Part shown: piece after piece, positions 6,283 through 7,190 of the stretch
How the letters are laid out: every line of letters starts with the position of its first letter
Numbering within the stretch: position 1 is the stretch's first letter
Sequence record: PQ474795.1
Direction: 5' to 3' (one strand)
Source: Escherichia phage vB_Eco_AMO_3701M
Length of the DNA: 45,294 bases
The notes under the pieces: model-generated
The model's database searches: none
What the model was told of the DNA's origin: nothing
What the model saw: the letters and a program-made list of their open reading frames with translations, nothing else
Translations under genes and position numbers: made by a program

Positions 6283-6342
6283 TGCGCAAACTATTTGTTT
6301 ACGTATTCCGGTTATTCCACTCGAATTGTAAATGTTGGAATA

Positions 6343-6358
6343 AACTATTCGAATAGTT
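6343..6358. promoter_or_regulatory. perfect 16-bp palindrome AACTATTCGAATAGTT abutting a -35 hexamer
   Basis: Everted arrangement of the same half-site (CTATTC/GAATAG) used in the genome-wide dyad. Confidence 0.5.
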
Positions 6359-6385
6359 GACTTTTCACCAAAAATGTGCTAAGCT
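6357..6385 (+). promoter_or_regulatory. strong sigma70-like promoter TTGACT-N17-TAAGCT with TGn extended -10
   Basis: -35 at 6357-6362, -10 at 6380-6385 preceded by TGC; no ORF of any size follows for about 200 nt. Confidence 0.55.
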
Positions 6386-6391
6386 CCACCT

Positions 6392-6590
6392 GAGCTTGTG
6401 AAGTATGAACAAGCGACCGCGGCGTGGCAGGTAACGGAGCCGGACGTTAAGTCCGAGTGTAGTTACGCTGACGCGTTCGGAAGGGCCATACTCTATTGCT
6501 TGTGTAAAAAGTAACTGGGTTTACTGAGATTACGCCGTTTCTATGTTTAAATGATAAGGGCTAGCGCCCCGCTTTATGGCGGGGCTTTAC
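6392..6590 (+). ncRNA. putative non-coding transcript (promoter-to-terminator unit without ORF)
   Basis: Between promoter 6357-6385 and hairpin 6566-6586; only a weak 38-codon GTG frame with no SD; speculative. Confidence 0.2.
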
Positions 6591-6592
6591 TT
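6566..6592 (+). terminator. terminator-like hairpin
   Basis: stem gccccgc / gcggggc, loop tttatg, then TTTACTT (short U-tract). Confidence 0.4.
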
Positions 6593-6609
6593 ATCGAGAA
6601 AGGAGAAAC

Positions 6610-7019
6610 ATGAATCTTAAAGCAACTGTCGTAGCAGGAGCATGTTTCATCATCCTGGCTTACGCACACGGCATCTACCAGTACCGCAGCTGGCTGGAAC
6701 GAAGGCCAGCGCGAATCTCGTTTCGCAGCAACAGCAGAAAGCACAGGCTGAGTTAGCGAAGAAAACACAACGGCAGCAGCAGGACGAATCAAAGGCCGCC
6801 GCCGCTGACAACGAAGGCAAGACGAAATCAGAGGTGATTACCCGTGAAGTCGTTAAGTACATTAAAACGCCTGGTCGCAGCGTGTGCACTTTTGACGATG
6901 CTCGCGTCCTGCTCAAGTCCCGCGCCGTCGCCAACGCCAATTCCATCTCCGGATACGACGATGATGCAGCCACCGTGCAAGCTGGCGCACGCCAAGTAGT
7001 GACGCGGACGAGGACTTAG
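6610..7019 (+). CDS. i-spanin, Rz-like (frame change near 6700)
   Basis: AAAGGAG RBS; N-terminal TM helix VVAGACFIILAYAHGIY then Q/K/A-rich coiled coil; fragments 6610..6756 and 6642..7019. Confidence 0.7.
6844..6999 (+). CDS. o-spanin, Rz1-like lipoprotein embedded in the +1 frame of Rz
   Basis: GTG 6844 with GAGGTG RBS; lipoprotein signal ending LAS-C; mature part Pro-rich SSPAPSPTPIPSP; entirely inside the Rz ORF. Confidence 0.7.
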   Translation: MKSLSTLKRLVAACALLTMLASCSSPAPSPTPIPSPDTTMMQPPCKLAHAK

Positions 7020-7190
7020 CTATTGACGTTCAGAACGCCGAATGCGTGCGGCAACTGCGTCTGAAAGTGTTCATGTTGCAGGACTACGTGAGGAATATTC
7101 TGGAATAGTTGCCTTCTATGTTGGAATAATTTATTCTTGACATGTAAATCCGGGTGGCCCGGATTCCAACGTCCAGGGGACATACTGACT

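Follow-up and report, generated by a model that had tools for sequence, protein, structure and literature searches.

Why does the hexamer GGAATA recur in two small, ordered arrays beside late-region promoters of Escherichia phage vB_Eco_AMO_3701M, and what might read it there? The window considered throughout is the whole 45,294-nucleotide stretch of this phage (PQ474795.1), one strand, 5' to 3'. One array lies in a region that we call R1 (6304-6362), 3' of the terminator of a Hoc-like gene (6095-6115) and 5' of a non-coding stretch of about 220 bp that leads to the Rz/Rz1-like spanin genes. The other lies in R2 (7092-7142), which takes in the last codons of the o-spanin gene (stop codon 7106-7108) and part of the 82-bp gap before the scaffold ATG at 7191, with the major capsid gene coming after the scaffold gene. 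We consider it moderately probable, from the arrangement and conservation of these sites, that the hexamers are half-sites of a composite operator of about 45 bp, through which one oligomeric DNA-binding protein would co-regulate two promoters of the late region served by the host's sigma-70 RNA polymerase.

Architecture and conservation of the GGAATA modules

The initial annotation had pointed to an 11-mer, TGTTGGAATAA, at 6333-6343 and 7119-7129, with GGAATA three times in each region, and this inventory is correct: the 11-mer occurs at these two places only, and GGAATA stands on the plus strand at 6337, 7092, 7102 and 7123 and, as TATTCC, at 6304 and 6313. What had been overlooked are the right half-sites of a dyad, GGAATAnnnTATTC, that is exact only at 6337-6350 and 7123-7136. 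Each region is one composite module of about 45 bp, in which a pair of hexamers 9-10 bp apart is followed, across an AT-rich linker of 15-19 bp, by a 15-bp dyad, GGAATAnnnTATTC(n). The R1 pair TATTCCggtTATTCC (6304-6318, minus strand) holds two GGAATA with a 9-bp period at about -88 to -74 relative to the predicted transcription start, and the R1 dyad GGAATAaacTATTCg (PAL; 6337-6351), one of the two exact matches in the window, is centred at about -48. The R2 pair GGAATAttctGGAATAG (7092-7108, plus strand), opposite in orientation to that of R1, has a 10-bp period, occupies -52 to -36 where it abuts the -35 hexamer, and coincides with the end of the o-spanin gene (…RNILE*); the R2 dyad GGAATAattTATTCt (PAL; 7123-7137) is centred at about -14 and spans -21 to -7, its right half being the -10 hexamer itself.

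GGAATA is not enriched genome-wide (30 copies on both strands against a shuffle mean of 18.6, with about 19-22 expected), and 6 of the 30 sit in these two patches. Among 500 dinucleotide-preserving shuffles, a single cluster of at least three sites within 60 bp arose in 0.6% and two such clusters in none, a statistic to be read with the fact that GGAATA was picked post hoc. The clusters are non-random, and their coordinates, their sites and their conservation are real.

Alignment of 58 related IMG/VR loci, the check proposed at the outset, finds the repeats present in about 50 relatives, with almost invariant hexamers joined by variable linkers. Across 40-41 distinct Kagunavirus and Jerseyvirus sequences, the hexamer columns of R1 have a mean entropy of 0.08 bits and the linkers and neighbouring positions there 0.66 bits; for R2 the two values are 0.007 and 0.37 bits. 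The arms of the dyad are constant and its 3-bp core differs by genus (aac, ctt or aat), and the TGTT flank within the shared 11-mer is specific to the lineage of E. coli phages. The R1 pair is near-invariant, and the R2 dyad invariant, in Kaguna-, Jersey- and Cornellvirus-like phages and in phiEap-2. The same four lineages share the R1 layout, including a constant distance from dyad to promoter: in all genera compared the R1 dyad ends exactly 6 bp before the -35 hexamer, and the hexamer pair precedes the dyad by 16-18 bp.

At R2 the conserved sites reach into a gene. The two upstream hexamers lie inside the o-spanin codons AGG AAT ATT CTG GAA TAG, and in this tail neither the synonymous change of AGG to CGG nor the non-synonymous one of CTG to ATG disturbs GGAATA. 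The o-spanin of Cornellvirus-like phages, which does not adjoin R2, ends …KNVTE* and is encoded there by DNA that lacks GGAATA; since the end of the protein differs where it is not next to R2, the constraint acts on the DNA. The footprint pattern, the symmetry of the dyad and the use of the hexamers in either orientation argue for binding of double-stranded DNA by an oligomeric protein, and against an RNA signal or chance, as do the fixed register with the R1 -35 hexamer in four lineages and the imposition on coding sequence. An RNA-level reading, with GGA motifs of the CsrA type, is ruled out by the inverted R1 hexamers.

A few further matches turned up in the relatives. An additional, inverted module ([A]GAATAAnTTATTCC, 8 bp, GGAATAACTGGAATAA) occurs in PSDA-2 (L064, reverse complement of about 6385-6420) and in phiEap-2 (L130, 11500-11545), between a stop codon and an intrinsic terminator where the head-morphogenesis operon ends; in phiEap-2, R1 follows about 330 bp downstream. 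This copy might allow modules to be brought together by looping of the DNA, or it might be a mere relic. The first 60 or so nucleotides of the Cornellvirus-like o-spanin gene (L048, 1951-2010; MNKLFLL…GITGCAPEY) hold a near-perfect dyad, TGAATAAATTATTCC, with two GGAATA; the coding sequence may have produced these by coincidence, or it may serve two uses. Apparent dyads 2.4-2.8 kb downstream of the scaffold start proved to be ribosome-binding regions with one mismatch, and in PSDA-2 and phiEap-2 the GGAATAgccGGAATA that precedes terS is part of a gene, where it encodes GIAGI.

The promoters and their transcripts

The R1 promoter (6357-6385, plus strand) consists of the -35 hexamer TTGACT at 6357-6362, a 17-bp spacer and the extended -10 element TGcTAAGCT at 6377-6385, with a predicted start near 6392. 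Its homologues read TAGACT-17-TGtTACGCT in Jerseyviruses and TGGACT-17-TGaTAACCT in Cornellvirus-like phages and phiEap-2; the TG of the extended -10 is invariant and the base after it may be C, A, G or T. Sequence comparison identifies TTGACT-17-TGcTAAGCT as a conserved, weak extended -10 sigma-70 promoter, and the start position as predicted places the whole R1 module upstream of it, at about -88 to -42. A perfect 16-bp palindrome, AACTATTCGAATAGTT (6343-6358), overlaps the R1 -35 hexamer and is centred at -41.5, near the position of class II activators of the CRP/FNR type; the palindrome is peculiar to Kagunavirus, its place being taken by TATTCAAAAAGTAGACT in the Jersey group, and the Cornell group does not keep it either. 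A second R1 promoter in the register of R2, with TATTCG as its -10, was discarded since it has no -35 hexamer and no T at -7.

The R2 promoter (7109-7137, plus strand) is TTGCCT at 7109-7114, a 17-bp spacer and TATTCT at 7132-7137, with a predicted start near 7144. Both hexamers and the 17-bp spacing are kept in all groups, including relatives that lack the arrays, as TTGCAT-17-TATTCT, TTGCAT-17-TATATT, TTGTTA-17-TATATT and, in Serratia phage Tsm2, TTGCCC-17-TATATT; on this comparative evidence TTGCCT-17-TATTCT is the conserved R2 promoter, with the consensus form TTGC(C/A)T-17-TAT(T/A)(C/T)T. This changes part of the first description. The positions of the two hexamers named there, TTGACT at 6357 and TTGACA at 7137, are accurate, and so is the remark that no -10 follows the latter: none is found 16-18 bp downstream, where the CCGGGTGGCCCGG hairpin lies instead. 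TTGACA (7137-7142) is not a -35, for it lacks a -10, reads TTGTTA in Jerseyviruses and is absent in two contigs (L054 and L057); it belongs to the start-site or discriminator region of the R2 promoter. With it falls the proposed common layout, an array 18-24 bp upstream of a TTGAC hexamer in both regions, since, measured from the start sites, the two modules differ in position by about 35 bp, that of R2 being the more downstream. The R2 module covers the spacer and the -10 element, which does not fit simple upstream activation. What stands of the original suggestion is a conserved, phased, promoter-associated array of a kind suited to protein binding, together with TTGACT as a credible -35 hexamer at R1.

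Comparison with relatives that lack the arrays bears on what a bound protein might do. The R1 array is gone exactly where the weak promoter has been swapped for one with the consensus TATAAT (VSiP, PSDA-2 and contig L045), and at R2 array-less relatives have a better -10, TATATT, against the TATTCT that doubles as a dyad arm. Because array and weak promoter are lost together at R1, and because the array-less R2 promoters are the better ones, it is suggested that the factor helps promoters that are intrinsically weak.

Transcripts from both promoters would begin with structured RNA. From R1 we predict a non-coding leader or small RNA of about 200 nt (6392-6590, plus strand), which ends at a GC hairpin (6566-6585) before the ATG of the Rz-like spanin gene at 6611. 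It has a minimum free energy z-score of -2.75, compensatory changes in 9 of 31 consensus pairs and no Rfam family; the terminal hairpin covaries, and its U-tract is weak and poorer still in Jerseyviruses. Small "hypothetical proteins" are annotated in this region in M01 and Bas76. Several indels in the leader between the E. coli-phage and Salmonella-phage groups argue against a conserved coding frame.

The 5' untranslated region of the scaffold/capsid transcript (plus strand) contains two hairpins. The first, AATCCGGG-tgg-CCCGGATT (7147-7165), begins 2-5 nt after the predicted start, and its closing pair varies as A-U, U-A, G-C and U-G, which is covariation of the RNA type on the plus strand; in Ent1 it carries an annotation as a rho-independent "terminator". 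The second, GTCC-agg-GGAC (7171-7181), holds the Shine-Dalgarno sequence and shows one compensatory change. From their form, these hairpins could have a role in mRNA stability or translational control. A stabilising 5'-terminal stem-loop is known from ompA, and by analogy the stem-loop here may stabilise the scaffold/capsid mRNA.

Candidate binding proteins and competing explanations

Pfam scans of 50 small proteins from Bas76, Ent1 and VSiP returned XRE, HTH_17 and NinH-like as the only DNA-binding domains. The XRE-type (HTH_3) regulator (35647-35859) is a poor candidate, being poorly conserved (41-50% identity between genera) and having its own divergent promoter region with TGAATAGT/CTATT boxes and no GGAATA. 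The Xis-like HTH_17 protein (38413-38580; 82-87% identity between Kaguna- and Jerseyviruses) is also a poor candidate, since it is undetectable in Cornellviruses that bear the arrays. The third, a NinH-like helix-turn-helix (HTH) protein of 78 amino acids (371-604, plus strand), is encoded by the penultimate gene before terS, about 280 bp before it, and is the best candidate; that it binds GGAATA is predicted on circumstantial grounds. Every array-bearing lineage examined in full has it (Kaguna-, Jersey- and Cornellvirus-like phages and phiEap-2), and it is far better conserved (59-67% identity across genera) than the XRE regulator. It was undetected by tblastn in the complete genome of Tsm2, which keeps the R2 promoter and hairpins and has no GGAATA cluster anywhere, and by pattern scans in the array-less contigs L049, L054, L055 and L060. 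Alignment with lambda NinH by hhalign gives a probability of 96.3% (E 1.7e-9), and PF06322 is precomputed on homologues of the protein.

Lambda NinH is a Fis-like DNA-bending homodimer that prefers a 15-bp G-N13-C dyad (PMC7166090). The dyad GGAATAnnnTATTCC has the size and symmetry of such a site, and the full dyad form in Cornellvirus-like R1, GGAATAAATTATTCC, has exactly the length and end bases of the NinH site. The position of the gene has parallels as well, known late activators being likewise encoded just upstream of terS (PMC3753634).

The annotation of this gene differs between relatives. In Bas76 (L061, 43345-43581) its apparent start lies 42 nt upstream of the annotated start of Bas76_0084, with homology from 43345 that overlaps the stop codon of Bas76_0083; in Ent1 the NinH-like domain is the C-terminal part of a longer open reading frame of 118 amino acids (gp56).

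If one sequence-specific oligomeric protein were to bind both modules, both promoters would be coupled to the late programme. At R1, the upstream module would recruit or activate at the weak extended -10 promoter that serves the leader and the spanins. At the scaffold/major capsid promoter of R2, the upstream pair abutting the -35 would activate, and the dyad over the spacer and -10 would occlude or limit. This would resemble lambda CI at P_RM, where OR2 and OR3 would correspond, respectively, to the activating site next to the -35 and the limiting site over the core promoter; it is a pure analogy, as the protein family and half-site geometry differ and lysogeny is lacking here. The preferred binder would be the NinH-like (Fis-like) HTH protein at 371-604. 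Net activation combined with a limiting R2 site of the lambda CI kind is a reading by analogy that we hold with lower confidence than the existence of a common regulatory protein.

Several observations weigh against binding of both modules by one such activator, or against the protein that we prefer for it. With the two modules displaced by about 35 bp relative to their starts, one simple mechanism cannot serve both. The additional inverted module of PSDA-2 and phiEap-2 adjoins a terminator and not a promoter. As for the protein, its direct Pfam score is under the family cut-off (24.6 against 29.8 bits), and two arginines in the SRGTVRKY helix of lambda NinH, whose role in contacting DNA has been described (PMC7166090), are replaced by Glu and by Ala, Ser or Thr; in Fis the corresponding residues are R85 and R89. 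The AlphaFold model is of middling quality (predicted local distance difference test score 65), and Foldseek gave generic HTH matches only, at E values of at least 0.68. Co-occurrence of array and NinH-like protein is confounded by phylogeny, and one array-bearing contig (L052) gave no NinH match in pattern scans. A PDB sequence search with the NinH-like profile had no match, and a Klebsiella phage with a 50%-identical NinH-like protein has no GGAATA clusters in the 22 kb examined, which is uninformative.

The geometry of the sites also allows the opposite sign of control. If the arrays were repressor or timer operators, an early phage protein would hold the spanin and scaffold/capsid promoters off until it was titrated, for example by replication, or no longer made. 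A dyad lying over the R2 spacer and -10, with extra hexamers inside the R1 promoter spacer of the Cornell group and phiEap-2, is classical repressor geometry and so counts against activation, and multi-site arrays with cooperative spacing are typical of repressors. In Kaguna- and Jerseyviruses, however, the conserved R1 sites are all upstream of -42, where polymerase would not be occluded; the core promoters of R1 and R2 are weak, and the array is lost where a stronger promoter replaces that of R1. The best candidate gene, moreover, ends a long operon just before terS, an odd place for an early repressor. We regard repression as unlikely, though with a chance large enough to be reckoned with.

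A protein of the host might bind the arrays instead, a nucleoid-associated or global regulator common to E. coli, Salmonella and Enterobacter that would tie late expression to the physiology of the host. A strictly invariant GGAATA in genera whose own XRE regulators are only 41-50% identical would also suit a host factor, and the 15-bp G-N13-C frame resembles Fis-type sites (PMC7166090). Particular host proteins fit poorly, however. The Lrp consensus YAGHAWATTWTDCTR is not enriched (56 matches against 53.8 expected, one of them a weak match in R2), and by inspection the dyad is unfit for the spacing of ArgR, IclR or AllR and for Fis at positions +/-3 and +/-4. Consensus sites for CpxR, RcsAB, DnaA, IHF, sigma-54 and sigma-E were likewise set aside by inspection, their spacing or conserved bases failing to fit. 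Moreover, in Tsm2, which infects Serratia, a related enterobacterium, the arrays vanish together with a phage gene. A host factor seems to us quite improbable.

It could also be that no dedicated factor is involved, the hexamers being promoter-intrinsic elements that recur by chance, or remnants of a duplication or gene conversion that involved both regions. We think this very unlikely. At R2, TATTC is indeed the -10 itself, full identity of the 11-mer is lineage-specific, and boxes like GAATAG are found in the other promoter family of this phage. Against this, four lineages keep hexamers at a distance of 50-90 bp upstream from a start site, whichever way these point and with linkers that vary, and the hexamers are imposed on coding sequence; array-less relatives have the same promoters without them.

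A still slimmer chance attaches to the arrays as loading sites for a processive antiterminator of the Q or AlpA type that would read through the hairpin at 6566-6585 and the terminators downstream. Binding elements of Q and AlpA lie between -35 and -10 (PMC7969949), as does the R2 dyad, whereas at R1 the conserved sites precede the -35 hexamer. A leader of about 200 nt with a terminal GC hairpin comes after R1, but the U-tract of this hairpin is weak and not conserved, and inspection finds no -10-like pause element. A small HTH_17 protein is encoded in Kaguna- and Jerseyviruses, but it is missing from array-bearing Cornellviruses, and no Q homologue is present.

That the arrays are a packaging (pac) site or an iteron replication origin has a negligible chance: terminases and initiators do typically bind at short repeats in phase, but these hold a fixed register with promoters, and a pac role is excluded because the record of the related phage fEg-Eco19 starts at the pac end mapped by PhageTerm and restriction digests (PMC9038960) and has its scaffold gene at 12138, placing pac about 12 kb from R2.

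Known systems, genomic setting and significance

A close formal parallel to an operator upstream of weak late promoters is the Ltr superfamily of Gram-positive phages (RinA, LtrC, ArpU; also TP901-1 Alt), in which repeats upstream of the late promoter are needed for a small phage activator encoded just before terS (PMC3753634). The likeness lies in repeats upstream of weak late promoters (the R1 array, -88 to -42) and a small HTH gene before terS. Unlike in those systems, domains of the Ltr, RinA and ArpU types are missing from the Pfam results for the 50 small proteins, the genes that follow the target promoters are those for spanins and scaffold and not terS, and the repeats are 6-mers, both direct and inverted, that overlap the core promoter at R2. 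Since no homologous protein is present, the arrays resemble the Ltr/RinA/ArpU and lambda OR families without being members of them. Lambda NinH and host Fis are close in another respect, as the candidate is a NinH homologue, NinH and Fis dimers bend 15-bp G-N13-C dyads, and Fis uses phased upstream sites; key contact arginines are replaced here, however, and the dyad is without the Fis preferences at +/-3 and +/-4. Lambda Q and Pseudomonas AlpA share with our case a dyad in the -35/-10 spacer (R2) and a leader with a hairpin (R1), but not the R1 sites upstream of the -35; a pause element and a convincing terminator are lacking here, and the array-bearing phages have no homologue of Q or AlpA in common.

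A second promoter family in the same phages deserves separate mention. A PHIRE-type motif, tgAATAGTa-ccTATTat-T, was reported for the related phage fBC-Eco01 and attributed to a phage RNA polymerase (PMC9825357); no phage RNA polymerase is annotated in Bas76, Ent1, VSiP, PSDA-2, phiEap-2 or Tsm2. The motif is like our arrays in being promoter-associated, in occurring in the same phages and in containing GAATAG, and the copy at 6258-6285 precedes the R1 array by 20 bp. It is unlike them in forming a separate family, with AATAG-N4-CTATT in the promoter spacer, at 8-9 other promoters, the XRE regulator's own region among them, and in not including the GGAATA module. In the window this TGAATAGTAnnCTATTAT family, with its AATAG-N4-CTATT spacer dyad, occurs at 4509, 6259 and 16027 on the plus strand and at 28732, 32390, 35567, 35611, 39055 and 41183 on the minus strand. 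Some copies have the consensus -35 TTGACA (replication genes), and others a weak -35 with a conserved TGGgGTGTGCAAg tail (head-morphogenesis, tail and other units). The TGAATAGTAnnCTATTAT boxes may be operators of the XRE regulator, whose divergent promoter region carries them.

The window is co-linear, position for position, with the record of Escherichia phage M01 (OR061069.1; 45,294 bp, Guernseyvirinae). Between 3100 and 10300 there are no indels and 503 substitutions, which fall mostly 3 bp apart, at third codon positions; none is in 6108-6559, and R2 holds only two, in the variable spacer at 7116-7117. The window keeps the frameshifts of that record, namely a split portal gene, a split capsid gene and an i-spanin gene broken near 6700-6760. 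Because these assembly frameshifts split genes of interest, gene context was read from the well-annotated relatives Bas76, Ent1, VSiP, PSDA-2, phiEap-2 and Tsm2. No transfer RNAs were found in the window, and Rfam gave no match in a scan of the window or in a permissive scan of 6350-7200. Nucleotide similarity to K1H spans R1, the leader, the spanins and R2 and ends 3 bp before the scaffold ATG, which suggests that the start codon marks a boundary between mosaic segments, where a retained regulatory cassette meets a different head module. Upstream of terS (761-880) lie a bidirectional-looking terminator (761-784), a TGTACA-18-TATAAT promoter (786-815) and a conserved GC-rich dyad, GACGCGTAGGGCGCGTC, an arrangement common to Bas76, Ent1, PSDA-2 and phiEap-2.

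In the searchable literature we found neither the arrays nor the corrected promoters described, genome papers giving the PHIRE motif and predicted terminators only; nor did it yield transcript-start mapping or a promoter study for these phages, the RNA-seq paper on K1B4 giving gene-level timing only. The Guernseyvirinae (Kaguna-, Jersey- and Cornellviruses) are common therapeutic and biocontrol phages whose transcription programme is essentially unmapped. The gains here are corrected promoters for the spanin and the scaffold/capsid genes, a conserved cis-module that can be used for mutation or as bait, and a specific candidate regulator.

The kind of biology at issue would be standard phage promoter and operator control. 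A fuller proposal, speculative and in our view rather unlikely as a whole, would make the NinH-like proteins of the Guernseyvirinae dedicated late regulators, whose modular operator, a 15-bp G-N13-C dyad with a hexamer pair, would activate a weak extended -10 promoter from an upstream position and gate the capsid promoter through its overlap with the -10, with R1 yielding a new structured RNA of about 200 nt. We know of no biological role, regulatory or otherwise, for the NinH family, and if it is true that the NinH-like protein binds these modules, this would be the first physiological function for that family.

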